Made by a program: the position numbers and the translations under genes | Notes under the pieces: generated by a model | The model's database searches: none | What the model was told of the DNA's origin: nothing | What the model saw: only the letters and a program-made list of their open reading frames with translations | From: a virus | DNA length: 64,000 nucleotides | IMG/VR virus record: IMGVR_UViG_3300009130_001805 | Span: 14,878-78,877 of that record | Direction: 5' to 3' (one strand) | Part shown: piece after piece, positions 5,849 to 35,300 of the stretch | How positions within the stretch are numbered: position 1 is the stretch's first letter | Layout of the letters: each line of letters starts with the position of its first letter

Positions 5849-6766
5849 TCACTCCTTTAAGCTTTCTGGTGAATCTTGCCTAATTAAAAAGGGGAAGTTC
5901 TTGTTGAAAGATTTTTTATTTCTTGAAACTTTTAAATTACCTGTGACCGCCGAAGTTTCTATTGGTAGGTTTAATATCTCAGGTATTGATGGGGGTTTGA
6001 TGGATGGATCTAGCGCCCACATAATTCTGTGTTCTTTTGCCCACCTTTCAATTCTCCTCACTGGAACCATTAGGTTAAAACCTTCTCCTGCGCCTCTCAC
6101 TATCATTCCTACGTATTCACCTGTCTGTAAGTAAACTCCACCTCCTGATGAGCCCGGAAATGCTGTAACAGTAGTTTGATCAAATTCAACTTTTCCGTGG
6201 ATTCTGCCAACTTGAGAGATTATACCACTAGTCATACTATTGGACCCCATTTGTCCAAGTAAAGATCCTACGTGAAATAGTCTGGTTCCTATGGGTATGA
6301 TGGGTTCATCTTTGTTTAGATAAAATTTGGCGCTATCTTTGCCATAGTCAAGGGCTCTGACCATGAGTAGAGCTAAATCTTCTCCGTCGTCTGCGTCGCT
6401 GTATTTAATTACAACTGCGTCCATTTTTATTTCTCCGACCCTTCTGCCGCCTTCAATTAATTCTTTAATTATTTGAACGTCTCCAAACTCAACTAATTTT
6501 TTAGGGTTTCCATCTTCGATAACAGTCCTAACAGATCTAAGGTTATCAACAACATGTGCGCAAGTCCAAACAAAGGTAACTGTATCCTTGCCTATTTTTC
6601 TGGTAATGAGTACTCCAGAGCCTTCTGATTTACTGTGGTAGTTTTGAGACCTTATTGTTACGGATATATCTTGTAAGTGTTTTGAAACTTTCCTTCTTTC
6701 TTCTGGATTTATAGCTAAACAGGGGAGTTGCGAGCATACCGCAATAAATAACAATAGAGTTTTCAT
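5849..6766 (-). CDS. Secreted trypsin-like (S1) serine protease
   Basis: Signal peptide; catalytic triad motifs TCAHVV, DLALL, PGSSGGGV. Confidence 0.9.
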   Translation of the reverse strand: MKTLLLFIAVCSQLPCLAINPEERRKVSKHLQDISVTIRSQNYHSKSEGSGVLITRKIGKDTVTFVWTCAHVVDNLRSVRTVIEDGNPKKLVEFGDVQIIKELIEGGRRVGEIKMDAVVIKYSDADDGEDLALLMVRALDYGKDSAKFYLNKDEPIIPIGTRLFHVGSLLGQMGSNSMTSGIISQVGRIHGKVEFDQTTVTAFPGSSGGGVYLQTGEYVGMIVRGAGEGFNLMVPVRRIERWAKEHRIMWALDPSIKPPSIPEILNLPIETSAVTGNLKVSRNKKSFNKNFPFLIRQDSPESLKE

Positions 6767-8306: not shown

Positions 8307-10728
8307 TTGCCATAGCCTCTAGGCTACAAGCAGAAGCTTCTGTGTTTGGTTTGGCTTCGGAGTCTGTTGATTTTTCAACTTTACTTGCAGCCCTATTTCT
8401 TAAGTAGTAAGTTGTCTTGAGTCCAGCTTCCCAGCATGCAGTATAAATATCATTTAAATATTTTAATGATGTGTTTTTATTGTAAAGGTTGAAGCTGATT
8501 GCTTGGTCTAACCATTTTTGTCTGACTGCGTTACACTCTATTAGTTTAAACATATCCCTGTCGAAGGCTGTTTTGTACTTATCTTTTACCCAAGAGGGTA
8601 TTTCACCATTAAGGAGGTTAATATCTCCGTCTACATTTTTAACCATTTTAGATAAATCATCAGACCATAACCCTAGATTTTTCATATCTTTTACAAAATA
8701 AGGGTTTGTTATATAAGAATTTCCGCTTTTATTTTCATAAACAAACAAAACTGAAAAATTTGGCTCGATACTCTGTTCCACTCCATTTATATAGCCAATA
8801 GTTGCAGTCGGTGCGATTGCCATGGTGTTGGAATTTCTCATTCCATGTTCTTTTATTAGACCTCTAACATCCGTCCAATCAAAATTAGTTTTTTGAGATC
8901 GTTTTTTTCCTCGATAATCCATGAGGTTATTCCAGCTATCTAGTGGAAGTATGTCTTGATCCCAGAGTGACCCGGAAAAAGACTTATAAGCACCTCTTTC
9001 CTTTGCAAGCAAAGCGCTAGATCTTATTGCGTGTAAACTAAAATACTCAAATAGTTTGTCATTGAATGACACGCTATCTTTTGAATCTATATTGATATTG
9101 AGAGTATGAAGGACGTCGTGAATGCCCATCATACCAAGGCCTATTGGTCTATGAGTTAGATTTGAATTAGCAGACTCCTTGGTTGGATAAAAATTTAAAT
9201 CTATAACATTATCAAGCATTCTTATTGCTGTAGAAATAGTACTTGATAATAATGTCCAGTCGATATCAACTCGTGATACTGAGCCATCTCTTTTATATAA
9301 GGTTCTCAGATGGTTTAAAAGATTAATTGAACCTAGATTACATACTGCAGTTTCCCCAACTTCCTCCTTCTCTCCATTTTTGTACTTAGAGGGTTTTGTG
9401 TGCAATGTTATTTCTGTACACAAATTAGAGCTATTAACTGGACCTTCGTGCTGATTGGTGTATCTAATATTGCAGGAGTCCTTAAAAGTATTCCACGGAT
9501 GAGAGGTTTCAAATAAAACTCTAAGCATTTTTTTCCACAGGTCTTTAGCTTTAATTTTTCTGAAAGACTTTATCTCGTTATCTTCCGCCTTGCGACAATA
9601 GTAAGCGTATTTTTTGTCAAAATCTGCGCCAAAAAGACTGTGAAGATCTTTGCATTCGCTGGGGTCGAACATATACCAGTCATCTTCATTTTTAACCCTC
9701 CTCATGAATTCATCGGGTATCCAAGAGGCTGTATTCATGTCGTGGCATCTGATTCTGTCGTCACCAGTATTTTTTCTTAGATTCAAAAAATCTTCAAAAT
9801 CTAAATGCCAAGGCTCTAGGTAAGCGCACCCAGCTCCGGGTCTTTTGCCGCCTTGGTTGACTGCAATTAATGTATCATTAAAGATTTTTAGCCAAGGAAC
9901 TAGACCGCTTGATATGCCATTCGTTCCCTTTATGTGAGATCCGGTTGATCTAAAATTTGTTACATCTAGACCTAGCCCTCCGGCATATTTTGATTTTCTA
10001 GCCTCTTGCCAAACTCCATCAAAAATTCCATCTATACTATCATCAAAAGTATTTAGGTAGCAGGAGCTTAGTTGAGAGTGGGTGGTGCCGCTATTAAATA
10101 ATGTTGGAGTCGAGGGCGTATACATGAATTGACTCATTAAATTATAAAACTCAATAGCTTTATCATCTTTATCTTTTTCGTTAATTGCTAGACCCATAGC
10201 AACCCTCATCCAAAAAGATTGTGGAGCTTCAAGTATTTTCCCTTCGGATCTTATTAGGTATCTATCAAAAATAGTCTGTATCCCTAGGTATTTAAAGGAC
10301 TTGTCTCTGGATATACATAAAGACTCTGATAGCTTTTTTAAATCAAAAGATAAAAGATCCTTAGAAAGTCTGCCAAGAGAAACTAGAGATTTGACATTTT
10401 GTATAAAACTCTTTCTGTACTGCAATTCAAAGGCGTCTGAGTCGACACCCTCCTTAAATACTTCTTTGTATAAGCAATTTAATAAAATTCTTGCTGCCGC
10501 GAATGAATAATTCGGCTCTTTTTCTATTTTTTCTCTGGCTGATAGGATGAGAGCCTTATCGATTTCTTGGGTTGTTATTTTGTCAAACAATTGAAGTTTT
10601 GCATCTAAAACAATTTCACTGGCGGATATATCATCTATGTCCTCGCAGGCCCTAATTGCGCATGCGTTAATCTTGTCGACGTTAAACTCTTGCAAGCGTC
10701 CGTTTCTTTTTTTTACTTTAATGTCCAT
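8278..10728 (-). CDS. nrdA: Ribonucleotide reductase alpha subunit with ATP cone
   Basis: VKKRNGRLQEF ATP cone, STPTLFN, SSCYL, SSNLCTEI, AVCNLGS, APTATI, KTTYYLR, C-terminal CESC. Confidence 0.97.
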   Translation of the reverse strand: MDIKVKKRNGRLQEFNVDKINACAIRACEDIDDISASEIVLDAKLQLFDKITTQEIDKALILSAREKIEKEPNYSFAAARILLNCLYKEVFKEGVDSDAFELQYRKSFIQNVKSLVSLGRLSKDLLSFDLKKLSESLCISRDKSFKYLGIQTIFDRYLIRSEGKILEAPQSFWMRVAMGLAINEKDKDDKAIEFYNLMSQFMYTPSTPTLFNSGTTHSQLSSCYLNTFDDSIDGIFDGVWQEARKSKYAGGLGLDVTNFRSTGSHIKGTNGISSGLVPWLKIFNDTLIAVNQGGKRPGAGCAYLEPWHLDFEDFLNLRKNTGDDRIRCHDMNTASWIPDEFMRRVKNEDDWYMFDPSECKDLHSLFGADFDKKYAYYCRKAEDNEIKSFRKIKAKDLWKKMLRVLFETSHPWNTFKDSCNIRYTNQHEGPVNSSNLCTEITLHTKPSKYKNGEKEEVGETAVCNLGSINLLNHLRTLYKRDGSVSRVDIDWTLLSSTISTAIRMLDNVIDLNFYPTKESANSNLTHRPIGLGMMGIHDVLHTLNINIDSKDSVSFNDKLFEYFSLHAIRSSALLAKERGAYKSFSGSLWDQDILPLDSWNNLMDYRGKKRSQKTNFDWTDVRGLIKEHGMRNSNTMAIAPTATIGYINGVEQSIEPNFSVLFVYENKSGNSYITNPYFVKDMKNLGLWSDDLSKMVKNVDGDINLLNGEIPSWVKDKYKTAFDRDMFKLIECNAVRQKWLDQAISFNLYNKNTSLKYLNDIYTACWEAGLKTTYYLRNRAASKVEKSTDSEAKPNTEASACSLEAMANGGTCESCQ

Positions 10729-10789: not shown

Positions 10790-11485
10790 TTAATAACATT
10801 CTGCATTACTAGGCTTAAAAAATTTGCAACGGTTATAAAGATCATTAAATTGACTGCGCCTTGGGGTGTCGAAATAATCCTCGAGCTCTTTGTTTGCTCG
10901 AATTTTACTTGACTTTTTAACTTTAGAACAATCGAAAGATAAATTTTTCATTTTACTTAATGTTTTGATGTAGTTTGAAAACTCATTGAATGAATCGCAA
11001 ATATTTTCGTATTCAACGATAGCCACATTCTCCTCTGGTAGTAATTTGACTTGGCTATTTATATAAAGAAGGTTATCTTCTTGAACTCTAGCAGCATGCA
11101 GGAGCGTCATTCCATTATGCTTATCAAATCTTTCCCAAGAGGATAAAGTTGATTGCACAATATCTCTTAAGCAAATTATAAAAAAAAGTTTTAAATTAAA
11201 ATTTTTAGAAAATAAATCATTAAACAGTTTTATGTCAAATCTTCTCAAGGGGTCAAGTGGTCTATTGTATGGGAATGACGCTCTTTCTATGTGGTCTAAG
11301 TTTGGATGGGATGTTAAGTAATTATTTATTTCACTCTCCTTGGTTTTATTTGAATGAAATGAAGATTTGTTAGAGAAGTAATCTAGTAATAAATCATGAA
11401 ATACTTTGTCTTGTTTGAATGAGCAAGTTTCTGCGAATAGATGATGCCCTGAGCCTTCATTGCCGATTAAGAACAATATATTCAT
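10790..11485 (-). CDS. PAPS-dependent sulfotransferase-like protein
   Basis: N-terminal LIGNEGSGHH loop (5'-PSB-like), IICLRDIVQS (3'-PB R..S motif), IVEYENI. Confidence 0.65.
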   Translation of the reverse strand: MNILFLIGNEGSGHHLFAETCSFKQDKVFHDLLLDYFSNKSSFHSNKTKESEINNYLTSHPNLDHIERASFPYNRPLDPLRRFDIKLFNDLFSKNFNLKLFFIICLRDIVQSTLSSWERFDKHNGMTLLHAARVQEDNLLYINSQVKLLPEENVAIVEYENICDSFNEFSNYIKTLSKMKNLSFDCSKVKKSSKIRANKELEDYFDTPRRSQFNDLYNRCKFFKPSNAECY

Positions 11486-12132
11486 TGGGCCTTATTGCTT
11501 TTGGTTAAAATTGATTCTGTGGACCCTGAGCAAAATCTATATATATGCAGCGCGTCGTTTTCTAGGTAAATACTAGAGGATACTTTGGGGTAAAGCCTTT
11601 TGAGCCAATCTATGTCTTCCATGGATTGACCTGAGTCCCCGCTTGAATATACGCCTTTAAAAGATTCTGACCGAGCTAGGGAAGATTTCCAAACGCACCA
11701 GTGATATGGTGGGCGAAGGGTGTCTTTATACTTGCCTGTGAAAGGGTTTATTCTTACGTCTTCATGTGGGTTGCCCATCTTTGCGAAAACCTTCGCTTCT
11801 AAACCATCTAAGTAACACTGCTGGTTAAATGAGATTACATCAGTATCTGGGTTGCTGGATATAGCTTTTATTATTTTTTTAATATAATCCTCGGATATGT
11901 CGTCATCATCATCCAGAAATGTGAGATGGCCACCTCTCGCAATATTCATGAGTTCATTTCTTTTTTCAAAAATATGCAATGATTTATTGTCTAGTAATGA
12001 GAGTATCTCTACTTCGTCACTTTCTCCTATTTGAGTTGATAATTTATTTAATAAAGGTAAGAATATCTCTAGCCTACTAGGTATAGATAGAATTAAAATA
12101 CTTAACTTAATGTTGTTGGGATCTTTAGGCAT
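11482..12132 (-). CDS. GT-A (GT2-like) glycosyltransferase
   Basis: LSILILS, KRNELM..ARG, TFLDDDD (DxD), EDIDW. Confidence 0.85.
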   Translation of the reverse strand: MPKDPNNIKLSILILSIPSRLEIFLPLLNKLSTQIGESDEVEILSLLDNKSLHIFEKRNELMNIARGGHLTFLDDDDDISEDYIKKIIKAISSNPDTDVISFNQQCYLDGLEAKVFAKMGNPHEDVRINPFTGKYKDTLRPPYHWCVWKSSLARSESFKGVYSSGDSGQSMEDIDWLKRLYPKVSSSIYLENDALHIYRFCSGSTESILTKSNKAQ

Positions 12133-12796
12133 TGTATTCTCTGGTTATAAAGTCTTGAAAGTATTCTTCCGCATCTAGTATTCTTCCGCATCCAGCATAA
12201 ACCTGACCGACAAAATGCTTGGGGTCTCTAATGCCCGGCAGTGGGATTTTTTGAAAAAAAGTGTCATGTGTGTGGGATTTAGATTTGACTATTGGGTATA
12301 TAATATCTCTTAGGAAATTTTGGTCGACTTGCCAGAAGTTGCCTTTGTGATATTCCTCGCATAAATCTTTCATATTTTTAAGTAGACCATTGCGTACTCC
12401 CCACATGCCTCCGAGGATGGGGACATTATGGAATTGGTGGTCTTTTATGATATGAAAATCTTTATCACTTTTCAACCATTCTTCTACCGCTAATTTCTCT
12501 CTGAACCATAATCTGGAATCACAGTCCCTTACAATAAGGGCGTCAACGCTTTGATCGCTTGCAGCCCAAAATCGCCAAAACATACCTTTCCAGTCGCCCT
12601 CTTCATCCATATTAATAATTTCAACATTATTGAACTCCGAGAGGTAGGTTACTATATGTTCTGGGACGCTTTTTCCTACATAAAATCTGCATACCCAATC
12701 TGGGTAAACAGACTTAGCTAGGGAGGCATTATGTAATGCACCCATAGTATATCTAGGGTTATCACCCCACAGGCTGAAAGAGATTATTTTTTTCAA
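12125..12796 (-). CDS. Putative GT-A-fold glycosyltransferase
   Basis: ISFSLWG..RY..GA..N, MFWRF, VRDCDSR (DxD), ILGGMWG, DQ.FL; lies within the GT operon. Confidence 0.6.
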   Translation of the reverse strand: MKKIISFSLWGDNPRYTMGALHNASLAKSVYPDWVCRFYVGKSVPEHIVTYLSEFNNVEIINMDEEGDWKGMFWRFWAASDQSVDALIVRDCDSRLWFREKLAVEEWLKSDKDFHIIKDHQFHNVPILGGMWGVRNGLLKNMKDLCEEYHKGNFWQVDQNFLRDIIYPIVKSKSHTHDTFFQKIPLPGIRDPKHFVGQVYAGCGRILDAEEYFQDFITREYNA

Positions 12797-13479
12797 AACT
12801 TTTTTAAGCTGAAGGTTAAAAAGCCATCCCCACCTTGTTTTTCTTTACTGGTTAATAGTTTATTGAAATCTACAGCAGGCCAAACATAGGAGCAATTTAT
12901 GTTGAATTTAGAGGATAGGGCTAGCTGTTTACTAATGGTGTTATGTTTATGTTGGGAGTGAGTTGCTATTATAAGGTTTTTAATTATCCCGGTATCTAGG
13001 TAGTCTTTTTTAAGGTCAAGGATAACTTTGTCTTCAGACCCTTGGATGTCCATGTGGAGTAGGTCTATGGAGGTTAAACATTCGTTTTTAAGAATTTGCT
13101 TCAAGTTAAGTTCTGGACCAAATTTTTTAAGATTGGGTTCAATGAATAATCCTCCCCAGTGGCTGGAGCAATTGTAGCCATTAAGCCTGAAGTTATTTTT
13201 ACCCCATTCGTAAAGCGGTTTTTTTAATTCTACGGTTATGTTTCTGCCGTGTGGAAACTTTTGCCTAAAAAGCAAAGACCACATACAGCAATGGCTACCT
13301 AATTCAACCATTGTTGGTGTGTTGCTTTTTATGTTTTTTATAATTTTATAAAATTCGTTTTGTTCAGCATGGGGCATGCAGATACGCTTAAAGCTGTCAA
13401 ATCCGGAGCAGATTTGTGGGTCTTTAAAGTCGGCAAAAAGAAGACCTTTGTATTTGTGTATGGTGCTTGACTTGTTCAC
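12793..13479 (-). CDS. FkbM-family SAM methyltransferase
   Basis: MVELGS..WS, ITVE, IDLLHMDIQGSE, IIATHS. Confidence 0.8.
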   Translation of the reverse strand: MNKSSTIHKYKGLLFADFKDPQICSGFDSFKRICMPHAEQNEFYKIIKNIKSNTPTMVELGSHCCMWSLLFRQKFPHGRNITVELKKPLYEWGKNNFRLNGYNCSSHWGGLFIEPNLKKFGPELNLKQILKNECLTSIDLLHMDIQGSEDKVILDLKKDYLDTGIIKNLIIATHSQHKHNTISKQLALSSKFNINCSYVWPAVDFNKLLTSKEKQGGDGFLTFSLKKF

Positions 13480-14141
13480 TTAGGGAATCCCTCGCTTTGT
13501 CTAGATAGGAAAGTTCTTTTATCTTCTTGGTCTAACTTTTCGTTCCTGAGGTAAAGCAGGTCATAACTTGTTTCGTTGTTTGGTACTGAGTGGTGTCTGT
13601 GTCTGATTATTATGTCGTTAAAATATTTGTATTTACCTGTCTTTTTTAGGACGTCTGTGAATTCTCTATCACACCATAAGGATTTGTAAGAGGGGTGGTA
13701 TATATACCCAAATCGATCATAGTATTTTTTACCTAATATGGATAGAGTATTAAGGTTGGAGCCTTGTATTCCATCGTTAAACCATAACACCCCGTCTGTG
13801 TCAGGGAAGAATTCTTTCATGCAGTTTACAATGATTGAGCCAAAGCCATCTACTTCTGGGTACATGTCATCACTGGCTAACAGACAGATGTCAAAATCTA
13901 CATCGTCCATATCCGCATTGACCGCCTCTATCTTAGATGCATTATCTCCATGGATAACTGTGGTATTACTGAAGCCTCTGAAATAAGCTTCCATCGCTGG
14001 GTTCTGGAATGATGGGTCGTCTTTATCGCAGGATATGATAAACTTTGTGTCTTTATGTCCACACATTCTTTGATACCTCTGGAAGACCTCCATGAACCTT
14101 CCGGCTCTATTTCTTGTTGGGAATTTAATTAGTAACTTCAT
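13476..14141 (-). CDS. GT-A glycosyltransferase
   Basis: KFPTRNR, CDKDD, LASDDMYP, WCDREF, IRHRH. Confidence 0.75.
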   Translation of the reverse strand: MKLLIKFPTRNRAGRFMEVFQRYQRMCGHKDTKFIISCDKDDPSFQNPAMEAYFRGFSNTTVIHGDNASKIEAVNADMDDVDFDICLLASDDMYPEVDGFGSIIVNCMKEFFPDTDGVLWFNDGIQGSNLNTLSILGKKYYDRFGYIYHPSYKSLWCDREFTDVLKKTGKYKYFNDIIIRHRHHSVPNNETSYDLLYLRNEKLDQEDKRTFLSRQSEGFPK

Positions 14142-14781
14142 TTATTCCAATATCGTGGCCAAAGCCTTTTGAGTGAGTGCCGAAAGCGCCAATGTGTTGG
14201 GCGTATGTTTTTTCGCTGCAAAGCAACTTTTTATTTTTATTCTTAAGTAACTCGAAAAGCTCCCAATCCCAGTTAAACGGATCTTTATTATAGTCTACTT
14301 CTCTAAGATATTCGCAGTTAACTAGCGATGCAAAACCACCCAAGGTTTTCTTTTCATTTAATTCGTCATCATAATTTGAAATTATTTGATGGCTTTTTGT
14401 GTTAAATAAAGAGACTACACCTATATCTGATTTAGATGTAGCTTTGGCGTAGCAGGATCTTAGGAAGTCTAACCAACCGGAGAGGTATACCCCATCTGTT
14501 TCGGCCATAAATATGTAAGGATCTTTTGTTTTGTGGTAAACAAAGTTTAATGCCATAAAGCTGTTTGCGTCGCAACCTGCATTTTCTTTAGATTGGAATA
14601 TGTGTATATCTTTAGCCTTGGGGATTTTAAAATTATTAATTAATTTTACAGTCTTTGGGTTAGAGCTAAAATCATCAAATATCCAAAGCGTATCTTCTTT
14701 GGTGAATGGAGATGACGCTAAGGACTCAAGACATTTCTCTAAATAGTCTGGACGATTATATGTTGTTAAGATAAAATTCAT
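14125..14781 (-). CDS. GT2-like glycosyltransferase
   Basis: TTYNRPDYLEKCLESL, IFDDFS, N.G...N, ETD, WDW, AQHIG. Confidence 0.85.
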   Translation of the reverse strand: MNFILTTYNRPDYLEKCLESLASSPFTKEDTLWIFDDFSSNPKTVKLINNFKIPKAKDIHIFQSKENAGCDANSFMALNFVYHKTKDPYIFMAETDGVYLSGWLDFLRSCYAKATSKSDIGVVSLFNTKSHQIISNYDDELNEKKTLGGFASLVNCEYLREVDYNKDPFNWDWELFELLKNKNKKLLCSEKTYAQHIGAFGTHSKGFGHDIGINEVTN

Positions 14782-15517
14782 TATTTGTGAAGTTGAAGTT
14801 GCCTGCCCAATCTTTTACTTTTATTGTCTCTTCGTGATCTTGGGGTGTGATTGAGTGAACACCTCCGATTGCGCCTATGTTTTGGACTCTACTCATTGTT
14901 GGAATAATTTCTTTCCGATTTTTTCTTAAGAAATTGTTAAGTAGAGCATCCCATCCTCCGTATTTGTATTGCACTTGATATATTGATCCTAAAATTAGCT
15001 CTCTATTTTCCCAAGTGCTTTTCATTCCTCCTTTTTCTTCCCATCTATCTATCCATGTCCCCCACCCTTGATTTGAGAATCTATTTTGAAATTCATATGA
15101 AAAGTGAAGTTCCTTGGGTATAGTTTCATTTGGGTTTCTGTAATGACCTGCGCTAACTGTGTAGATCGAGTCATCGTTTTTAAAGTTTTCCCTGCAAAAA
15201 TTGTGAAATAATAAAAAGTCTTGAGCTAGAACTGTATCATCTTCAATCAATATTACATAGTCACAAGATTCGAATCCTTCTTTGAGTGCGTTGTAGGTAT
15301 TTAATGTATGTCCAACTCTTTGGTTATTTACTGTTAGCTTTACATCGCAAAAATCTATTGATTTAAATAGTGATATTACCTCTTCACTCATTGGCTCGAC
15401 ATGAGGAATGAGGGTTGCGTTTTCTACTCCTATACAACCACTTAAGGAATTAATAACTTTCTTTGTATAGTCAGGTCTATTGCAGGCCGTCATTACGATG
15501 GTGTTACTTATCGACAT
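14756..15517 (-). CDS. GT-A glycosyltransferase (GnT-I/GT13-like motifs)
   Basis: ACNRPDY, ILIEDD, GWGTW, WD, SRVQNIG. Confidence 0.8.
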   Translation of the reverse strand: MSISNTIVMTACNRPDYTKKVINSLSGCIGVENATLIPHVEPMSEEVISLFKSIDFCDVKLTVNNQRVGHTLNTYNALKEGFESCDYVILIEDDTVLAQDFLLFHNFCRENFKNDDSIYTVSAGHYRNPNETIPKELHFSYEFQNRFSNQGWGTWIDRWEEKGGMKSTWENRELILGSIYQVQYKYGGWDALLNNFLRKNRKEIIPTMSRVQNIGAIGGVHSITPQDHEETIKVKDWAGNFNFTNNEFYLNNI

Positions 15518-15816
15518 ATTTTTCCCTTAATGAAAGTTTGTTGATTCTTTACTACAGTTTCTAATTTCGTTGTATAACCAGACCAATTTCTTTTACGGGA
15601 GAGGTGTCCGAGCTTACATAGCCTGTTGAGGCTGCTGCGAACTGTATTCGGGTGGCACTTAATCTCCTTGGCTAAGGATTCTATGTTTAGATGGAACTCT
15701 TTGCCGTTGTATGATTTTCTGCAAAGAGCGTAATATAGCGTGCCGTCTTTGTCTTTTAGGTTGCCTGATACGATGTCTTCATGTAAGGCTTCTGGTATCA
15801 TTCTGAAAAAACTCAT
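15508..15816 (-). CDS. Winged-HTH protein (regulator or replication-initiator-like)
   Basis: LYYAL...IESLAKEIKCHPNTVRSSLNRLCKLGHL; start reassigned to ATG 15816 because the longer ORF overlaps its own promoter. Confidence 0.75.
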   Translation of the reverse strand: MSFFRMIPEALHEDIVSGNLKDKDGTLYYALCRKSYNGKEFHLNIESLAKEIKCHPNTVRSSLNRLCKLGHLSRKRNWSGYTTKLETVVKNQQTFIKGKICR

Positions 15817-15823
15817 TCCGCAT

Positions 15824-15852
15824 ATCTTACTACGAAAACAGAAAGAAGTCAA
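15824..15852 (-). promoter_or_regulatory. Sigma70 promoter for the wHTH-glycan operon
   Basis: TTGACT-17-TAAGAT, 7 nt to ATG. Confidence 0.7.
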
Positions 15853-15928
15853 CAAAAAAATGTGGGAGGGTCACAGAAAATTGTGAGTCACCTACTTTTT
15901 GCTGTGAGTCTCCCTACAAAAAATTGTT
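15851..15928. repeat. 21-bp-phased direct repeats inside an imperfect inverted repeat (iteron/operator-like)
   Basis: TGTG at 15861, 15882 and 15903, TGTT at 15925; TGTGAGTC twice; arms TGTGGGAGGGTCACAG and CTGTGAGTCTCCCTACA. Confidence 0.6.
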
Positions 15929-16030: not shown

Positions 16031-16333
16031 ATGCTACTCAGAAAAGAAAAAGAAAAAGAGAGAATGTTTCTAGTGTCCTGCGCTGATTGGGAATTGGCAG
16101 TTAAGGCTAGGGACGCAGAAGAAGCTTGCACTAAAGCCATAGAAAAAATGCTGGAAGAATACGGGAAAAGAGTTAAGGTCTCGCCCGTTATGCTATCCTT
16201 TGATTTTTCTTCCTACGCAGAAGATGCTGACTCGGATTCAGCAACTAAAATAGTAACTGCCTCATCCATGCTGGCAAACGCTGGTCACCATAAGTGGGCA
16301 AAAGGAATGAACTCTATATTCGGGAACAAATAA
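16031..16333 (+). CDS. Hypothetical protein
   Basis: 100-aa ORF directly after the promoter, abutting dut. Confidence 0.7.
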   Translation: MLLRKEKEKERMFLVSCADWELAVKARDAEEACTKAIEKMLEEYGKRVKVSPVMLSFDFSSYAEDADSDSATKIVTASSMLANAGHHKWAKGMNSIFGNK

Positions 16334-16334
16334 A

Positions 16335-16835
16335 ATGGAAATAAATGTAAACTCAGAAATTAATAGTTTTAATATGCCTGCCAATCCGGGGGATGCAGGG
16401 TACGATATTACTGCACATTCAGACCCGCACATTGAGGGCAAGAAGCACAAGTCTAGCCTGTACTCAGAAATAAGCTATATAGAGTACGATACAGGCGTAA
16501 GCCTATCTCCCAGCGAGAACCAGATATTCACACTACTCTACCCAAGATCTTCTATCTCGAAATACAATCTCTCACTAGCTAATAGTGTTGGAGTTATTGA
16601 CTCAGGCTACATAAACACAATAAAAGTCAGGTTTAAATACTACCCACAACCAGCAGATATATCGCTTGTTGATAACAAAATTTATTTTAAAATTAATAAA
16701 AATAAAATTTATAAAAAAGGGGATAAAATAGGACAACTGATTTTTACTTACCATGTTCACCCTCAAGTAAATAGAGTTAATCAGCTAAACAATACAGTAA
16801 GGGGATTTTCCGGCTTTGGGAGCACAGGTCTATAA
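16335..16835 (+). CDS. dut: Trimeric dUTPase
   Basis: AGYDI, YPRSS, NSVGVIDSGY, KIGQL, RGFSGFGSTG. Confidence 0.95.
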   Translation: MEINVNSEINSFNMPANPGDAGYDITAHSDPHIEGKKHKSSLYSEISYIEYDTGVSLSPSENQIFTLLYPRSSISKYNLSLANSVGVIDSGYINTIKVRFKYYPQPADISLVDNKIYFKINKNKIYKKGDKIGQLIFTYHVHPQVNRVNQLNNTVRGFSGFGSTGL

Positions 16836-17401
16836 TGAACTTTCCTAAAGTCATAGGAGTCTCAGGGGTAGCGCGTTCAGGAAAAGATACATTCTGTGAA
16901 ATAGCTCTTGCTTATTTTTCCCAATGGGGTATATTAGGTCGTAGAGAAGCATTTGCGGATGAGCTAAAAAAAGACTTAGATCAATTCTTGATTGAAAAAT
17001 TTAACATCAGCTCATTTACTACCAACGATGAGGAAAAGAAAATAATCCGCCCAATGATGGTTTCATATGGAGAATCCAAGCGAGACCTCACTAAGGGAAT
17101 GTGCTGGATTGATAAGCTTAAAAAAAATATAGAAAAAAATATAGATCAAAATATAATAACCTTTATTAGCGACGTGAGGTACCCGAACGAATCTAATTGG
17201 ATTAAAAAAGACTATAATGGAACCACAGTACACATCAGTAGGGAAAATAACCTCCCCGCGAACGAAGAAGAGGCATACAATGATCCGTTGGTTCAGGACG
17301 TATCTGAATTCAAAATACAATGGCCTAACTTCGAAAGTGATATAAAATTAGCTAATCCCTATGTGCTCGAAACCCTTCAAGAAATCTCAAGATCCTCTTA
17401 A
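16835..17401 (+). CDS. Deoxynucleoside monophosphate kinase
   Basis: GVSGVARSGKDT, AFADELK, ISDVRYPNE (T4 gp1/T5-like). Confidence 0.9.
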   Translation: MNFPKVIGVSGVARSGKDTFCEIALAYFSQWGILGRREAFADELKKDLDQFLIEKFNISSFTTNDEEKKIIRPMMVSYGESKRDLTKGMCWIDKLKKNIEKNIDQNIITFISDVRYPNESNWIKKDYNGTTVHISRENNLPANEEEAYNDPLVQDVSEFKIQWPNFESDIKLANPYVLETLQEISRSS

Positions 17402-17987
17402 AAATCTTTCAGACTTAGAGTTGATTGAAAATATTCGCAATAAAAAGAATGCAGACCAGTGTTTTAATTCTATAATGTGCAGGCATAATGGCATATACTT
17501 AGACATGGTTCATACCTACAACCAAAGAGTTGATAATGAATCTCACAAGAAAGAGTTAATTGATGAAATGCATTATAATATATATAAAGCCGTAATGAAA
17601 TACGACCCCAGTAAAGGCGCGAAATTTTCCACCCATTTAGGTAATGAAACAAAGTGGATGTGCCTAAATAGGCATAATAAAAATAGAAAAACAAAAACTT
17701 TTTTACTTGACGAAACCACTAAAAGTATGTTATCATGTTCTAATGATGGAGAAATAGCCAGATCAATCAATAACGAAATAATAGAAAAAGTTTTAGAGAT
17801 TGTAGGAGATCATCCAGACAAAAGAGTAAAAAAAATATTTAAAATGAGATATATTATTGGCAATAAAAACAAGGTTATGCCTTGGAAACAAATAAGTAGC
17901 GCTATGGATATAAGCGTTCAAGGTTGTATCAATATTCATAACTCAGCTTTAAACAAGATTAAAACCAAATTAGCAAAGGAGACTTAA
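17361..17987 (+). CDS. Phage sigma70-family sigma factor
   Basis: SDLELI, region 2 KAVMKYDPSKGAKFSTHL, region 4 HTH IFKMRY...WKQISSAMDIS...IHNSALNKIK. Confidence 0.85.
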   Translation: MCSKPFKKSQDPLKNLSDLELIENIRNKKNADQCFNSIMCRHNGIYLDMVHTYNQRVDNESHKKELIDEMHYNIYKAVMKYDPSKGAKFSTHLGNETKWMCLNRHNKNRKTKTFLLDETTKSMLSCSNDGEIARSINNEIIEKVLEIVGDHPDKRVKKIFKMRYIIGNKNKVMPWKQISSAMDISVQGCINIHNSALNKIKTKLAKET

Positions 17988-17988
17988 A

Positions 17989-18399
17989 ATGTTCAATAAG
18001 TTCATCGCAGTAGGAAACCTAACTAGGGATCCAGAAACAAAATCAACAAACTCTGGTCACAGCATTTGTGAGTTCAGAGTCGCCGTAAATAATCCAAGAT
18101 CTAAAGAGGATGTCCTTTTTATTGATGTAGAGACTTGGGATAAGCTTGCAGATATCTGCTCTCAGTACCTTGCTAAAGGCAAGAAAATCATCGTAGAAGG
18201 AAGGCTTAAGAATAATAGCTGGACCACAAAAGAAGGCGAAAAAAGAAATAAAATCTTTTGCGTCGCGGACGATATTCGCTTTGTTGGTAGTAAGTCTGAA
18301 GAAGCGGAATTAACCACTCAATCAAAACCCCAAAGCAAGGCAGCTCCAGCCACAGAATCAGAGGAAGATGTTGCTGCCATGGAAGACATTCCATTCTAA
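17989..18399 (+). CDS. ssb: Single-stranded DNA-binding protein
   Basis: NKFIAVGNLTRDPE, KGKKIIVEGRL, C-terminal EDIPF. Confidence 0.97.
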   Translation: MFNKFIAVGNLTRDPETKSTNSGHSICEFRVAVNNPRSKEDVLFIDVETWDKLADICSQYLAKGKKIIVEGRLKNNSWTTKEGEKRNKIFCVADDIRFVGSKSEEAELTTQSKPQSKAAPATESEEDVAAMEDIPF

Positions 18400-18400
18400 T

Positions 18401-19486
18401 ATGTCTGACTTTGTCTTTAAAGCTCCTTTAAATTCATTAAGCCTTGGAAACGTCTCCTTTAACATACTAAGGGAGGCGTTTCTGCATGGATCTAATGTCT
18501 CGCTTTTTAATATAGGGCAAAACCCAGACCTATCTGCCTACAATAAAATTGACAATGATTTCAAAGATTGGATTATAGAATCTCATAGCAAGAGATACTC
18601 TACTTCAAATAGGGATACCCCAAGCCTCCAGCTCTGGCATATCAATGGGAGCGAAAACAGAATAACTTCTCCGCAAACTCTGTTTACTTTTTACGAAGTT
18701 GATTCTCCCACTGAAACCGAAAAAAATATCGCCAACCTACAGGATAACATTGTATTCAGCAGCTCCTACGCAAAAAGAAACTTTGAAAACTCTGGGTGCA
18801 AAAATGTACATAACATCCCCCTAGGCTTCGATAACGATTTCTATATAACCAACAAAAAGTATTTAGAGGATAAAGTCCATTTTGGATTAATAGGCAAATT
18901 TGAAAAGAGAAAACATACCGCTAAAATCTTAAAAGCATGGGCTTCTAAATATGGAAATAATTATGACTACCAATTAACTTGTTGCATAACCAATCCATTC
19001 TACAAGCCAGAGCAAATGAATCAAGCTATTTCCCAAGCGTTAGACGGAGAGTCCTACGGAAATATATCTTTCTTGCCTTATTTAAAAACGAACTCAGAGG
19101 TTAATGATTTAATGAATGCTGTAGATATAGACCTTAGTGGCTTAAGCGGCGCAGAAGGTTGGAATCTTCCATCCTTTAATTGTACAGCTCTAGGTAAATG
19201 GAGTATTGTATTAAATTGCACTTCTCACTTAGACTGGGCGGATTCATCAAATTGTATACTTGTTGAGCCCGATGGTAAAATACCAATCTACGATAGCGTC
19301 TTTTTCAAGGAGGGCGGAGCGTTTAATCAAGGAAGCATGTATGACATTTCTCATGAAAAATTAATTGAAGCTTTTGAAAAAGCAGAAAAACTAGCTGGAG
19401 TTGAAAACAAAAATGGGATAAAATTGCAGAAAAAATTTACATACAAGAAAACTTTTAGCAAACTATTAAAAATCTTAATTCCCTGA
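18401..19486 (+). CDS. GT-B (GT4-like) glycosyltransferase
   Basis: SSYAK..F, IPLGFD, GKFEKRKH, AEGWNLP; start set to the ATG 1 nt after the ssb stop. Confidence 0.85.
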   Translation: MSDFVFKAPLNSLSLGNVSFNILREAFLHGSNVSLFNIGQNPDLSAYNKIDNDFKDWIIESHSKRYSTSNRDTPSLQLWHINGSENRITSPQTLFTFYEVDSPTETEKNIANLQDNIVFSSSYAKRNFENSGCKNVHNIPLGFDNDFYITNKKYLEDKVHFGLIGKFEKRKHTAKILKAWASKYGNNYDYQLTCCITNPFYKPEQMNQAISQALDGESYGNISFLPYLKTNSEVNDLMNAVDIDLSGLSGAEGWNLPSFNCTALGKWSIVLNCTSHLDWADSSNCILVEPDGKIPIYDSVFFKEGGAFNQGSMYDISHEKLIEAFEKAEKLAGVENKNGIKLQKKFTYKKTFSKLLKILIP

Positions 19487-19511
19487 TTATCACTGCAGTG
19501 TAATAGACTGC

Positions 19512-20315
19512 ATGGTAAGAAAAATACTAATTATGGGTCTTCCGGGCTCCGGAAAGACAACTCTTGCTGAAATTTTAGTAAGAAAACTTAACGCCTCTTG
19601 GTTTAATGCTGATGCAGTCCGTCAAGATATATACTCAGAGCTTGGCTTTGCTGAGTCTGATAGACTTGAGCACGCCAAAAGAATGGGTAAACTTTGTGAG
19701 TGGGCTTCCTTAGGAGGAAATTATTCCATAGCAGACTTTATTTGCCCCACTCAAGATACTAGAGATGCATTCAATGCAGACTTTACTATATGGGTTGACC
19801 GTATCACAGAAGGAAGATACGAAGATACAAACAAAATGTTTGAAAAACCCATGAATTATGATGTTAGATTAATTGAAGGGTCTGCAGAAGAATGGGCTGA
19901 AAAAGTTATTTCTAAATTAAATGAAACAGAAAAATGGAATAACCAAGCCCCCACAGCGCTACTTATTGGTAGGTATCAACCTTTTCATGTCGGCCATAAA
20001 ACTCTTGTAGCCGAATCAATTAAACGTTCAGGGCAATGCTGCATTGCACTTCGAGATGTCGGAGGTATAGACGACAGTAATCCATACGACTTTGAGAAAG
20101 TTAAGGCTGAAATTCATGCTGCTTGCATCGAGTTTGGAGATAAAATAAAAGTTGTTGAACTCCCTAATATCACGGACGTATTTTATGGAAGAGGCGTGGG
20201 CTATAATATAGAGCAATTAGAATTAAGCAAAGAACTCCAGTCTGTATCTGCTACCAAAATTAGAGCAGGAGAAATTGGTCAAGATGGAAAACCTTTAGGA
20301 AAACGCCCGGAGTAA
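19512..20315 (+). CDS. cysC: Adenylylsulfate (APS) kinase fused to an HxGH nucleotidyltransferase
   Basis: N-terminus: MGLPGSGKTT, NADAVR, LGF..SDR, FICP, FEKP. C-terminus: GRYQPFHVGH ... VSATKIR. Confidence 0.8.
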   Translation: MVRKILIMGLPGSGKTTLAEILVRKLNASWFNADAVRQDIYSELGFAESDRLEHAKRMGKLCEWASLGGNYSIADFICPTQDTRDAFNADFTIWVDRITEGRYEDTNKMFEKPMNYDVRLIEGSAEEWAEKVISKLNETEKWNNQAPTALLIGRYQPFHVGHKTLVAESIKRSGQCCIALRDVGGIDDSNPYDFEKVKAEIHAACIEFGDKIKVVELPNITDVFYGRGVGYNIEQLELSKELQSVSATKIRAGEIGQDGKPLGKRPE

Positions 20316-20349
20316 CTTTACTTTTTTTAAAAAAGGCATATAATAAAGT

Positions 20350-20736
20350 ATGCCAATATATCTCTACGAGCATCCAGAGACTCAAGAAGTTATAGAAATC
20401 GTTCAGGGCATGAACGATGATCATACTTTTACTGATAAAGAAGGTGTAGAATGGAATAGAATATATTCTCTTCCTCAGCTTGCTTGCGAGCAAATTAATA
20501 TCGATCCTTGGGATAATAAGTCATTTGTTCATAAAACTGGAACAATGAAAGGCAGTTATGGTGACCTCCTAGACTATAGCGCAGACCTATCAAAACAAAG
20601 AGCGCAAGAGAATGGGGGAGTTGACCCAATCCAAAAGAAGCATTTCAAAGAATACGAAAAAAGAACTGGCCAAAAGCATTTAAAAGACAGAAAGAAAACA
20701 ATTGAAAACAAAAACTTCAAAATAGACTTTGATTAG
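20350..20736 (+). CDS. FmdB-like protein lacking the zinc cysteines
   Basis: MPIYLYEHPETQEVIEIVQGM...W.RIYS start; TATAAT 5 nt upstream. Confidence 0.6.
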   Translation: MPIYLYEHPETQEVIEIVQGMNDDHTFTDKEGVEWNRIYSLPQLACEQINIDPWDNKSFVHKTGTMKGSYGDLLDYSADLSKQRAQENGGVDPIQKKHFKEYEKRTGQKHLKDRKKTIENKNFKIDFD

Positions 20737-32304: not shown

Positions 32305-32357
32305 TTTAGTAAAGACGCTTTTTTCTGTGTAATTCCCCGTTGGAAAAAGGAATTAAA

Positions 32358-35300
32358 ATGGCACGCCCAGTAAGGATACCAGCACAGCAACAAGGATTTG
32401 AGAAGTCCGTTATGGACGCCGTTAATCGGCTGAACAGAAGCGGACAGCTCAAACTTAATGTAAACTCTAGATCTTTTACCCAACCTCTGGGGAAGATCAC
32501 TGCCAGCGCGGATGAGTTTACAAAGTCTCTCGAAGCTTCTAATGCTCGTGTTATTGCTTTCGGGGCTTCTGTAGGAATCATTAATGCGGTTAGCAATGCT
32601 TTTAAAAGTTTGGTGATCCAAACAATGGAAGTCCAAAAGCAAATGGCTGAAATTAACGTCGTTATGCAGACAGGAACCGAAGGGCTTCAGAAAATGCAGA
32701 CTGGGTTATTTAAAATAGCCAAAGAAACTGCTCAATCTTTTAGTGTTGTCACCGAGGCTGCTCTTGAATTTTCGCGTCAAGGCTTGTCTATGGAAAAAAC
32801 TCTTCTTGCTACAAAGCAAGCCATGATTCTTACTAGAATTACAGCTCTGGATGCTGCCGAAGCTGTAAAAGGTCTTACTGCTGCGGTCAATGGATTTGTA
32901 GATGCAGGCATTAGCCACACTCAAGTTGTTAACAAAATGTCTGCTGTCGATGTTAATTTCGCAGTCAGTACGGAAGATTTAATTCACGGTCTTGAGCGAG
33001 CTGGAGCTGTTGCTCAGGACGCTAAAGTAAATTTTGATGAGCTAATGGGCGCCATTACTGCTGCGCAGCAAATAACCGCTCGAGGTGGTAATGTAATAGG
33101 TAACTCATTTAAAACTATTTTTACCCGTATACAAAGAAGCTCCACAATAAACCGACTAGAAGAGCTTGGCATCGCTGTTAAAGATCTGGAGGGTCGTACG
33201 CTTCCTGCGATGAAAATACTAAAGGAGCTTGCTATAACATATGACGGCTTAGCAGATTCAACAAAAGCTGCTGTAGCCGAGCAAGTCGGTGGGGTTTTCC
33301 AGATTAACATTTTAAAAGCTGCCCTTAAAGACCTTGGCAGGGAAAATAGCGTATTCGCTAGAGCTACAGAAATATCTAATAGAGCTACAGATGAAGCCAC
33401 AAAGAAAAATGAAGCCTTAAATAAGACTCTTTCAGCTCTTGCGGCCCAAACAGGCACATCAATCCAGCAGCTTTCAGAAGCTATTGGAAAGCTCTCAATG
33501 GGAGGAGGAATTGAAAAAGTTTTAAAAACTATCAATACTATCGCAGAAGGAATGTTCAAAGGCATAGAGTCTGAAGGCATTGGTGGAGATCTAGCTAGAG
33601 GACTGCTAAAAGGTATGGGCAATATACTTTCTGGGCCCGGATTAATACTTGTGGGCGGCATGTTTGTTAAACTATTTGGTGAGGTTACAAAGTTTGCCAC
33701 AAAAAGTATGGCTAACATTATTGGGATTACCACTCAAAAGCAAAAACAAAAAGCGGTAGAAGAAGCGATCCTTAAGGTTATGATGGAAAATGAAGGCATT
33801 GAAGCTTCATTGCTTGCGATGGGTAAAAACAGAGTTCTGCAAGAAGAGCATGTACTGAAACTTATAAAACAGCAAGCAGCTGCTGCTCGAGAAAGAGCTG
33901 CTATAGCTGCGGCAGTTGCCCCGGGCCTAGTTAGGTCTGGAGTTAAAGGGCCTAGTCTTTCAATTAAGGGTGGCGCTGCTGGAGGAATCATTCCAGCTTC
34001 TGAAAGAAATGCAGAGAGAAAAGGCGCAATATCAGCTGGATACTCTCCCGGAAAAGTTTCTTCTACAAAAATAAAAGGAGTTGGAGATGTCGTATATAAC
34101 AAAGCTGAATCGATAAAAGAATTTCCGGGTATGCAGCAAAAGGCTATCATGCCTCCAGAGTCTAGCAGAGCTGGCTCTAAATATGCAAAAGCGTTCAAGA
34201 AAGCTCATGGATTTGACCCCTATGCGCCATCAGGCTTTATTCCTAATTATGGAATTGTTGGCGCTCGTGGCTCAGCTTCACTAGCTTTATCCAGAACAAA
34301 TATGGTGACCCATGGAACCGGGCGAGGGCAAAATACTCGTGCCATGGACAAGAAGTATGGAGAAAGCGGAGAAAAGTTATTTGCAACAGAGACTGCTAGA
34401 TTTGTAAATAAAAACACTCCAGAAGAAAAAAGAAACCTATTAGGCAGGATAATGACACGCTTGCTAGACAAAGGAATTGTTAACTTTACTCGCCCCGGAT
34501 ATTTTCAAAAAGAGTCTTTTAAAACAAATAGAAGAAGCTCCGAAAAAGATTTCGATCAATTCGAGAGGCATATGGTCAAACAATTATCTAGCGAAGGATA
34601 TAAAAGCACAGGTAGAGTTATAGATCCCAAAACAAGAAAAGTCGAAGCAGGAAACAATCAATACCCTCAAGATGCTTTTGCCAAAGGCAAGGTTCCTCGA
34701 GAATTTAAAATTAATAGAATTGACGAGAAAGACATATTAAGTAAGTCAATAAGAAGGACTACCGATCTCGACCCTCAAGACATCCTTAATGGCAAATATA
34801 CAAGGGGAGATATTACAAAAGGCAATGAATTTATACAAGTCTTAAGAAATAACTTCGGCCCAAGCTCAGGCAATCACGATGAAATCTTAATGGGTTTAGT
34901 AAACAAGTTTCAAAAGTCTAACCTAGATTCAGCTTTGAATTTATTACGCCAGAAAAAGATTGATGTTCCCGCTGGAGAAGAAGCTTACACTGCCGCTATT
35001 CATGGCTTACATCGGGGCTTTATTCCTAACTATATTGGAAGAAGGCGTATGCCGTCAAAAGCGCATCTCGAAAAAGCAAAAAAATCTATAGATATATACA
35101 GAAAGCTTACATTAAGCAGAAAAAGATCAAGAGACTACGACGGGAACCTTGCCACAGAAATTAGTAATGCTTGGGGACTTAAAGACCCAACTCACTCTAC
35201 AATAGTAAAAACTTTCGGAAGGATTAAAACCGATAAGTCGGCCCACAAAACTGTCAACGAGGAAGTTCTTGACATAATGGCAAACCCCGCAAAATATAAA

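Follow-up and report, generated by a model that had tools for sequence, protein, structure and literature searches.

A 64,000-nucleotide stretch of viral DNA (positions 14,878 to 78,877 of IMG/VR record IMGVR_UViG_3300009130_001805; the whole stretch is called the window below) carries a gene for a 267-amino-acid protein. In this protein, a domain resembling adenosine 5'-phosphosulfate (APS) kinase precedes a small nucleotidyltransferase (NT) domain with an HxGH motif. The fusion is probably a self-sufficient miniature synthase of 3'-phosphoadenosine 5'-phosphosulfate (PAPS), a candidate function suggested by comparative genomics. We also lean towards a wider proposal, in which the NT domain arose from nicotinamide mononucleotide (NMN) adenylyltransferases (NMNATs) and constitutes a minimal, third class of ATP sulfurylase. 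Together with the trimmed APS kinase, it would be the source of PAPS for sulfotransferases in SAR11 bacteria, other Alphaproteobacteria and many phages, and alone beside the APS reductase AprBA it would be the "missing Sat" of SAR11 sulfite oxidation. A full-text search limited to one collection found no publication that ascribes sulfate activation to this NT family.

In the proposed pathway, the C-terminal HxGH domain would adenylylate sulfate with ATP, yielding APS and pyrophosphate (PPi), and the N-terminal kinase would then form PAPS by phosphorylating APS at its 3'-OH. The kinase step would draw the unfavourable adenylylation of sulfate forward. The PAPS would be used by the phage's own sulfotransferase-fold enzyme, which is encoded in a nearby glycan-tailoring operon. 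In SAR11, a stand-alone NT protein encoded beside APS reductase would work in the reverse direction, converting APS and PPi to ATP and sulfate. We infer both catalytic activities and the identity of the sulfated product, and this applies above all to the activation of sulfate by the NT domain. Taken together, sulfotransferase neighbours, NT-only genes linked to apr genes, and the phyletic pattern in SAR11 make PAPS synthesis the most economical reading. An initial reading as part of a cofactor pathway or a pathway to a nucleoside diphosphate-linked compound (NDP-X) was dropped once the cellular gene contexts were known.

The first-pass annotation, made from the sequence of the window, had described a CysC-like P-loop domain fused to an HxGH domain of about 125 amino acids. 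The open reading frame (ORF) occupies exactly the positions at which it had been placed, and the Pfam, PHROGs and structure-prediction results bear out both domains. The protein matches phrog_10255 over its full length (E 4e-52), and the AlphaFold2 (AF2) model of the whole fusion has a pLDDT of 94 and a pTM of 0.72. More than 7000 matching homologs were found in a search of 5.8 billion proteins, and 136 clusters at E<1e-30 were found among 50%-identity representatives. Because of the end-to-end phrog_10255 match, the thousands of homologs and the confident model of both domains, the fusion is a genuine protein and not a chance or miscalled ORF. In phrog_3462, only the P-loop of the fusion is matched.

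The kinase half

The kinase half appears to be a trimmed, probably active APS kinase. Its score against Pfam APS_kinase (PF01583) is 48.1 bits, compared with a cutoff of 21.1, over residues 5-87 and model positions 5-92 of 152; the match thus spans only about the first 60% of the model. All significant PDB sequence matches are to APS kinases, as are all of the top 50 Foldseek matches (top matches at E ~4e-9). The half falls outside the full-length NCBIfam CysC equivalogs (TIGR00455 and related), for which it scores 44.7 bits over residues 5-88 against a cutoff of 138.7.

Conservation was judged from 50 aligned, diverse homologs that cover the full length of the fusion. Within the P-loop, K15 is the same in all of them, and near-invariance extends to G9, L10, G14 and T16. 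Structures of Mycobacterium tuberculosis CysC point to Asp480, the second Asp of an LDGD sequence, as a candidate for the catalytic base; the adenine of APS is held between Phe492 and Phe576 and touched by Arg497, and Lys562 is contributed by the lid (PMC4373884). HMMER alignments pair D34, F46 and R51 of the phage protein with Asp480, Phe492 and Arg497, and all three are nearly invariant among the 50 homologs. A conserved RYxDTNxxFExP sequence (R102, Y103, D105, T106) stands where the CysC lid would be, and may take the place of the CysC lid residues. In other proteins, the kinase half is fused to a membrane domain, DUF4118 (P0121, P0167, P0185, P0199, P0204 and P0216).

The nucleotidyltransferase half

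The AF2 model of the NT domain alone also has a pLDDT of 94. The best Foldseek match is the archaeal NMNAT 1ej2 (E 1e-4). In VIA-align comparisons, NadM (2qjt) scores highest (Z 10.7), followed by phosphopantetheine adenylyltransferase (PPAT; Z 10.4) and archaeal NMNAT (1f9a; Z 10.4). The ATP sulfurylase of Thermus thermophilus (1v47) aligns over 119 residues with a Z of 8.4 and a root-mean-square deviation of 3.5, and other ATP sulfurylases give Z values of 5.5-6.9.

Sequence comparisons point the same way. The C-terminal part of the fusion has weak matches to NadM, archaeal NMNAT and CTP_transf_like, and the NT domain falls far below the cutoffs of the NMNAT families themselves (29 versus 397 bits for NF003786, 20 versus 181 for TIGR01527). 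In the PDB, a profile built from NT-only sequences matches no proteins other than NadM and archaeal NMNATs, and these matches are limited to the 45-70 N-terminal residues that bind ATP (positions 15-71 of 127); the NMN-binding C-terminal half of NMNATs is unmatched in this search. Because the resemblance is confined to the ATP-binding part, the NT domain appears to be an NMNAT derivative whose acceptor-binding half has been replaced. Judged from its sequence, it is a descendant of archaeal/NadM-type NMNATs and not of Sat or CysD. The first-pass annotation had singled out the motifs GRYQPFHVGH and SATKIR, both of which are present, and had considered them more like NMNAT or cytidylyltransferase than like Sat; Foldseek, VIA-align, the PDB profile search and hhalign agree on NMNAT over Sat.

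The HxGH motif is nearly invariant in the 50 fusion homologs and invariant in the alignment of NT-only proteins. In SATKIR, S246 is nearly invariant and R251 invariant among the 50 homologs. The most conserved peptide pattern of the family, as selected by a program, is the YGRxVGY loop, whose family consensus is YGR[D/G]VGY. Its G226, R227 and G230 are invariant and Y225 and Y231 nearly so in both alignments. In the phage protein the loop is YGRGVGY and is preceded by PNIT (residues 218-221), and the replacement element PNIT...YGR[D/G]VGY..E is invariant across the family. The GRG of the phage loop resembles the GRD loop of Sat (VGRDHAG) by eye, a likeness for which no alignment supports equivalence. 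Fold and sequence are neutral on the acceptor, and it is genomic context that tips the reading towards sulfate.

Two further architectures of the NT domain were observed. In one SAR11 genome it lies inside a 465-amino-acid ORF (G036:C11:36283-36624), and in one protein (P0265) it is joined to a partial chorismate synthase, which may be a chimeric gene call.

Association with APS reductase in SAR11

In one SAR11 locus (L121), genes on a single strand encode, in order, a cystathionine-beta-lyase-like protein, a major facilitator superfamily (MFS) transporter, the fusion, a CADD protein, a SorU-like cytochrome c, an ankyrin-like protein, a QmoC/AprM-like protein, AprB and AprA. AprB (193 bits) and AprA (999 bits) both score above their NCBIfam cutoffs. 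Three other SAR11 loci (L163-L165) contain the lyase-like, MFS and CADD genes and then an NT-only gene of 126-130 codons, without a kinase, followed by genes for AprM-like protein, AprB and AprA. The NT-only gene is thus directly upstream of aprM-aprB-aprA. In Allochromatium vinosum, the gene at this position upstream of aprMBA is sat, and sat and aprMBA are transcribed together (PMC3779200).

The apr-linked NT-only proteins share 72-74% identity with the corresponding half of a SAR11 fusion. In a tree, they and the NT halves of fusions found beside sulfotransferase-like genes form one tight SAR11 clade. Identity between the phage NT domain and stand-alone NT proteins of SAR11 is 48-56% (48-50% for those linked to apr), and the phage domain keeps every invariant residue. 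Most Pelagibacter genomes encode the kinase and NT domain in separate ORFs of ~135 codons that overlap by ~34 nucleotides in different frames (for example, L157, L158, L160, L161, L162 and L166), and the fusion occurs in a minority. The split ORFs may be coupled genes or may be joined by a programmed frameshift.

The apr neighbourhood conserves genes for C-S-lyase-like, MFS and CADD-family (TIGR04305) proteins in all four loci (in L121, the region of 8834-9556 and 9597-9980), and the SorU-like cytochrome c gene lies in the L121 neighbourhood. The neighbourhood looks like a module that converts organosulfur compounds to sulfate.

Phyletic pattern among Pelagibacteraceae

We surveyed 101 Pelagibacteraceae genomes that are at least 85% complete. 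The NT family is present in 61 of them, AprA in 52, and Sat and CysD in five each. AprA and the NT family occur together in 51 genomes, the family alone in 10, AprA alone in one, and neither in 39 (Fisher p = 3e-17, uncorrected for shared ancestry). The family is found in 48 of the 49 genomes that have AprA and lack Sat, and in 20 of the 101 a distance of 1.4-4 kb separates the NT gene from aprA. CysD and the NT family never co-occur, and CysD is confined to genomes in which the kinase matches lie in ORFs of CysN/C size.

Sulfotransfer_3 matches are distributed unevenly among these genomes. They are present in 22 of the 40 genomes with both kinase and NT domain, in four of the five with CysDNC, in one of the 19 with NT only, where a separate CysC-like ORF lies near the sulfotransferase, and in three of the remaining 35. 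Two genomes with an NT match but an ambiguous kinase half were left outside these classes. Twenty-one of the sulfotransferase-bearing genomes have kinase and NT domain and neither Sat nor CysD. Sulfotransferase-bearing SAR11 genomes contain CysDNC or kinase plus NT, never both together. This pattern is as predicted by non-orthologous displacement of CysDN and CysC by kinase plus NT, and is also as predicted if the NT protein can act alone on APS.

Published surveys describe the same lineage. Candidatus Pelagibacter ubique has AprBA, and cysDNCHIJ and sat are absent from it (PMC5069961). Table 3 of Smith et al. 2016 lists "cysC" for the five aprA-bearing strains and no others, and cysQ in all strains (PMC5069961). 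Assimilatory sulfate reduction is absent from all 135 of 135 complete Pelagibacter genomes, and their sulfotransferases are encoded in a hypervariable surface-glycan region (preprint 10.64898/2026.04.03.716430).

Sulfotransferase neighbours in Alphaproteobacteria

Many Alphaproteobacteria carry the fusion, at 42-59% identity; among them are Bradyrhizobium, Xanthobacteraceae, Hyphomicrobiaceae, Acetobacteraceae, Inquilinus and numerous Pelagibacteraceae. In Bradyrhizobium and other Alphaproteobacteria it is adjoined by a gene for a tetratricopeptide repeat (TPR)-Sulfotransfer_3 protein (E 1e-42), and in L118 and L136 by two copies of this gene in tandem. A sulfotransferase-like gene also directly adjoins the fusion in two SAR11 single-cell genomes (L133 and L135). 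Overall, 13 of 80 cellular loci have a sulfotransferase-like gene within 8-10 kb, often adjoining. ORFs of high-GC loci were called with a caller aware of GC content at third codon positions (GC3).

An unbiased tally of 47 non-SAR11 loci covered 138 flanking ORFs and 141 Pfam families. Sulfotransferase alone recurs, with eight members, compared with at most three for any other family. Arylsulfotransferase (ASST; PF14269/PF05935), from a family that transfers sulfate independently of PAPS, is a further neighbour with a link to sulfate and is matched by three of the flanking ORFs at alphaproteobacterial loci.

Phage relatives and a sulfotransferase-fold gene

The first-pass annotation had reported a sulfotransferase in the same genome. 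A 231-amino-acid ORF in the window is placed with sulfotransferases by the ESM Atlas, with a structural TM score of 0.71 to Sulfotransfer_3 clusters and a feature score of 0.96 to a viral Sulfotransfer_1/_3 cluster, and Pfam, PHROGs and PDB sequence searches return nothing for it; the report therefore stands at the level of a lead. The gene lies 8 kb from the fusion and is the only one of its kind in the 78.9-kb record, which is estimated to be 56% complete. It is the terminal gene of a minus-strand operon of overlapping genes (10790-15855). The sulfotransferase-fold enzyme, with its glycan operon, is the likely consumer of PAPS. An iterative hidden Markov model (HMM) of sulfotransferases was seeded with this ORF, so its own match to the model is not independent evidence.

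The operon also encodes an HTH_36 protein, GT-A-type glycosyltransferases (Glycos_transf_2 and MGAT2/GNT-I-like), a weakly FkbM-like methyltransferase and two proteins that belong to no family.

Annotated relatives of the fusion, at 36-40% identity, occur in phages of Xylella, Xanthomonas and Stenotrophomonas. In Xylella phage Bacata (L001) and Stenotrophomonas phage Bhz60 (L002), in the region of ~6001-6741, the fusion is ~3 kb downstream of an annotated cysteine dioxygenase gene and near a MazG gene. Among 80 loci of uncultured viruses, nine have a sulfotransferase-like gene within 10 kb, and in L041 and L065 it is directly upstream of the fusion. Two complete genomes of Sano/Salvo-type phages gave no detectable sulfotransferase.

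In 53 of the 80 viral loci (within L020-L082), the fusion is followed by a gene for DUF2061, a two-helix membrane protein (PF09834, E 3e-16). No DUF2061 gene is present in the window's own record, and a search for fused forms among longer proteins gave two uninformative matches. A link to a small membrane domain of the DUF2061/DUF4118 type is also listed for the family in L134. Such persistent links might reflect tethering to the membrane or a connection with sulfate uptake. A proposed tie between DUF2061 and conventional sulfate-activating genes finds no support in adjacency: each of the five SAR11 genomes with CysDNC has DUF2061, but never next to cysD or cysNC.

In a quick tree of NT domains with weak resolution, the window's copy lies in a phage-only clade and is not nested in SAR11. 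The RecA-like protein of the window has no close cultured relative. In view of these two observations, we did not adopt the label of pelagiphage for the virus.

Comparison with known systems

The metazoan PAPS synthases PAPSS1 and PAPSS2 (PDB 1x6v, 1xjq) share with the fusion the order of domains, with APS kinase N-terminal and adenylyltransferase C-terminal. Their kinase halves are homologous to that of the phage protein, and the proposed chemistry, from sulfate to APS to PAPS, is also shared. However, PAPSS proteins have ~620 amino acids and a Sat-type sulfurylase with a PUA-like module and QxRN and GRD loops, whereas the second domain of the phage protein has 128 amino acids and derives from NMNAT. 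The phage kinase lid is also ~20 residues shorter than that of PAPSS.

Sat (PF01747; as in A. vinosum Sat and 1v47) belongs to the same superfamily as the NT domain, with HxxH/HxGH and ISGTxxR-type motifs, and the SAR11 NT-only gene shares its position upstream of aprMBA. The NT domain lacks QxRN and an N-terminal PUA-like domain and is about one third as large; it is an analogue of Sat and not an orthologue. Archaeal and NadM-type NMNATs (1f9a, 1ej2, 2qjt, 2qjo) have in common with it GRxQPxHxGH, an NPF element and SxTxxR. This likeness ends after ~70 residues, where the NMN-binding half is replaced by PNIT...YGR[D/G]VGY, and the gene contexts concern sulfur, not nicotinamide adenine dinucleotide (NAD).

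CysDN and CysC, including the CysN/CysC fusion, apparently have the same role as kinase plus NT in sulfotransferase-bearing SAR11 genomes. CysD has the PP-loop ATP pyrophosphatase fold and is driven by the GTPase CysN, whereas the NT fold is unrelated and no GTPase partner is seen. NadR and the phage NARP3 protein Bas30_86 (PMC13464706) also combine a P-loop kinase and an HxGH adenylyltransferase that act sequentially in one chain, in the latter case encoded by a phage. They differ from the fusion in their opposite domain order, in a kinase of the ribosylnicotinamide kinase (RNK) type and in their product, NAD+.

Genomic setting in the window

The fusion lies in a plus-strand block (16031-20736) together with genes for dUTPase, deoxynucleoside monophosphate (dNMP) kinase, a sigma-like protein and single-stranded DNA-binding protein (SSB). 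The glycosyltransferase-like gene upstream of it (Table 1) has no Pfam match and stops 25 nucleotides before the fusion start on the same strand. A hairpin with a perfect 5-bp stem (GCAGT-GTAATAG-ACTGC, 19495-19511) abuts the start codon of the fusion and has no second copy within the window. No Shine-Dalgarno sequence is visible at this start, and a scan for promoters and terminators gave no signals above chance.

Table 1. Positions of the fusion gene, its domains and motifs, and two associated genes in the window
Feature	Coordinates	Strand	Basis
267-aa APS-kinase/mini-NT fusion, candidate PAPS synthase	19512..20315	+	ATG-to-stop ORF
APS-kinase-like P-loop domain with shortened lid, residues 1-139	19512..19928	+	Pfam, PDB sequence, Foldseek
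P-loop GLPGSGKTT, residues 9-17	19536..19562	+	Read from sequence
Mini HxGH NT domain, candidate ATP sulfurylase, residues 140-267	19929..20315	+	AF2 model, fold and sequence relatives
HxGH motif H159-V-G-H162, inside GRYQPFHVGH (residues 153-162)	19986..19997	+	Sequence
Family-specific loop YGRGVGY, residues 225-231	20184..20204	+	Conservation
SATKIR, residues 246-251, ISxTxxR-type pyrophosphate-binding motif of HxGH nucleotidyltransferases	20247..20264	+	Sequence
Glycosyltransferase-like gene, 372 aa	18368..19486	+	phrog_2170 glycosyltransferase, E 9e-18
Sulfotransferase-fold gene, 231 aa, last of glycosyltransferase/methyltransferase operon	10790..11485	-	ESM Atlas

Other genes of the window were noted in passing. 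Between the dNMP kinase and SSB genes, a 208-amino-acid protein (17361-17987, plus strand) has a weak match to Sigma70 region 2 (E 0.002) and is possibly a phage sigma-like factor. The ORF downstream of the fusion (20350-20736, 128 amino acids, beginning MPIYLYEHPE) has a weak match to phrog_385, "transcriptional regulator" (E 0.0045). The structural-gene region includes one giant plus-strand ORF of 4425 codons with a TTG start (32340-45617). It is followed by further large ORFs of 663-1053 amino acids, two of which have no PHROGs match.

Alternative explanations

Several observations weigh against PAPS synthesis by the fusion. In the kinase, the counterpart of LDGD is FNAD, in which the second Asp is kept as D34 and the first is replaced by Asn, and the lid that bears Lys562 in CysC is ~20 residues shorter. 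The nearest relatives of the NT domain make NAD, and ATP sulfurylases rank below NMNAT and PPAT in fold (Z 8.4 versus 10-10.7), so the likeness to Sat is at the level of the superfamily. Pfam PF01747 (Sat) has no match in the fusion, and Sat is absent from the PDB search with the NT profile at E values up to 10. An hhalign comparison of the NT domain with four SAR11 Sat sequences gave a probability of 0.9% over 23 columns around HxxH, with only P.H..H in common. In Sat, the QxRN (RNP) loop ahead of HxxH binds sulfate and the alpha-phosphate of APS (PMC3779200). This loop was not found in the NT domain, where GRYQPFHVGH holds Arg and Gln in another register; the same motif is present in archaeal NMNATs.

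The genomic evidence has weak points too. The co-occurrence statistics ignore shared ancestry, and absences are soft at the completeness of the surveyed genomes. The sulfotransferase call in the window comes solely from Atlas similarity. In Sano/Salvo-type phages, a gene for NADAR (COG3236), a family linked to NAD and ADP-ribose, overlaps the fusion upstream, and this context, without a detectable sulfotransferase, is the chief finding at odds with sulfate activation. Finally, the sulfotransferase links need only the kinase, because AprBA can supply APS in SAR11 and, presumably, CysDN does so in Bradyrhizobium-type genomes.

This last point leads to the strongest alternative, which we consider unlikely: only the kinase takes part in sulfur metabolism, using host APS from CysDN, Sat or AprBA, and the NT domain serves in sensing or regulation, in binding of APS or PAPS, or in a reaction of the APS:phosphate adenylyltransferase type. 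The sulfotransferase associations require just the step from APS to PAPS, and AprA, a possible supplier of APS, is present in 33 of the 40 SAR11 genomes with kinase and NT. There is also a precedent in the fungal ATP sulfurylase, which carries a non-catalytic domain resembling APS kinase (PDB 1m8p, 1i2d). However, the invariance of HxGH, SxTxxR and the family-specific Arg loop argues for catalysis, and the NT domain is retained throughout phage and fused forms. It also occurs alone beside aprMBA in Sat-less genomes, where the pathway wants an APS-consuming enzyme. In addition, the six SAR11 genomes with a true fusion have no match to AprA, Sat or CysD and thus show no known source of APS for the kinase.

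Quite improbably, the NT domain could still be an adenylyltransferase of NMN or a similar substrate, with the kinase acting on a nucleoside or on the 3'-OH of an ADP-linked product. The protein would then resemble NadR or CoA synthase and serve in NAD salvage or counter-defence, as does the phage-encoded kinase-NMNAT of the NadR type that rebuilds NAD+ (NARP3; PMC13464706). For the NT domain, NadM and archaeal NMNATs do rank first in both sequence and fold, and the Sano/Salvo-type context described above fits this explanation. However, these matches are confined to the ATP-binding N-terminal 45-70 residues, the NMNAT family score is far below its cutoff (29 versus 397 bits), and the kinase is like APS kinase and not RNK. 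No NAD-salvage gene recurs in the 47 alphaproteobacterial loci, whereas sulfotransferases do, as does aprMBA in SAR11.

An even smaller chance falls to the activation of a sugar or alcohol, in which kinase and NT domain would convert X to X-phosphate and then to NDP-X for the upstream glycosyltransferase and the glycan operon. The adjacent glycosyltransferase-like gene suits this idea, several SAR11 copies lie among epimerase and glycosyltransferase family 2 (GT2) polysaccharide genes, and the sugar- and glycerol-phosphate activators HldC and TagD are in the NT fold list (Z 7.5-7.7). However, glycosyltransferases are not recurrent neighbours outside SAR11, and the kinase is specifically like APS kinase and keeps the residues that bind the APS adenine. 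Sugar activation would also leave the apr-linked NT-only genes and the complementarity with CysDNC without explanation.

We give hardly any weight to a RibL-like flavin mononucleotide (FMN) adenylyltransferase that provides flavin adenine dinucleotide (FAD) for the flavoprotein AprA: AprA uses FAD, the apr operon includes the NT-only gene and the FMN adenylyltransferase modules of FAD synthetases are among the fold matches, but FAD synthetase (Z 6.7) is weaker than NMNAT, PPAT and ATP sulfurylase, and the APS-kinase fusion, the sulfotransferase neighbours, the AprA-less genomes, the phages and the exclusivity with CysD would be unexplained.

The suggestion of the first-pass annotation that the small domain is a non-orthologous ATP sulfurylase thus gains support from comparative genomics, namely from the sulfotransferase neighbours, the position upstream of aprMBA and the exclusivity with CysD, and from these we infer the activity.

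Implications

To our knowledge, two forms of ATP sulfurylase have been described, Sat and CysDN. If the proposal is correct, the NT domain would join them as a third, one third as large as Sat, and a central step of the sulfur cycle would gain a new class of enzyme. This would explain how APS made by AprBA is converted to sulfate in SAR11 bacteria without sat, and where the sulfotransferases of the SAR11 hypervariable region obtain PAPS without cysDNC. A 267-residue PAPS synthase could also serve in enzymatic regeneration of PAPS. Phages would carry a one-gene module for sulfate activation, which would make glycan sulfation independent of the host, and SAR11, the most abundant bacteria of the ocean, would finish the oxidation of sulfite to sulfate with a gain of ATP.

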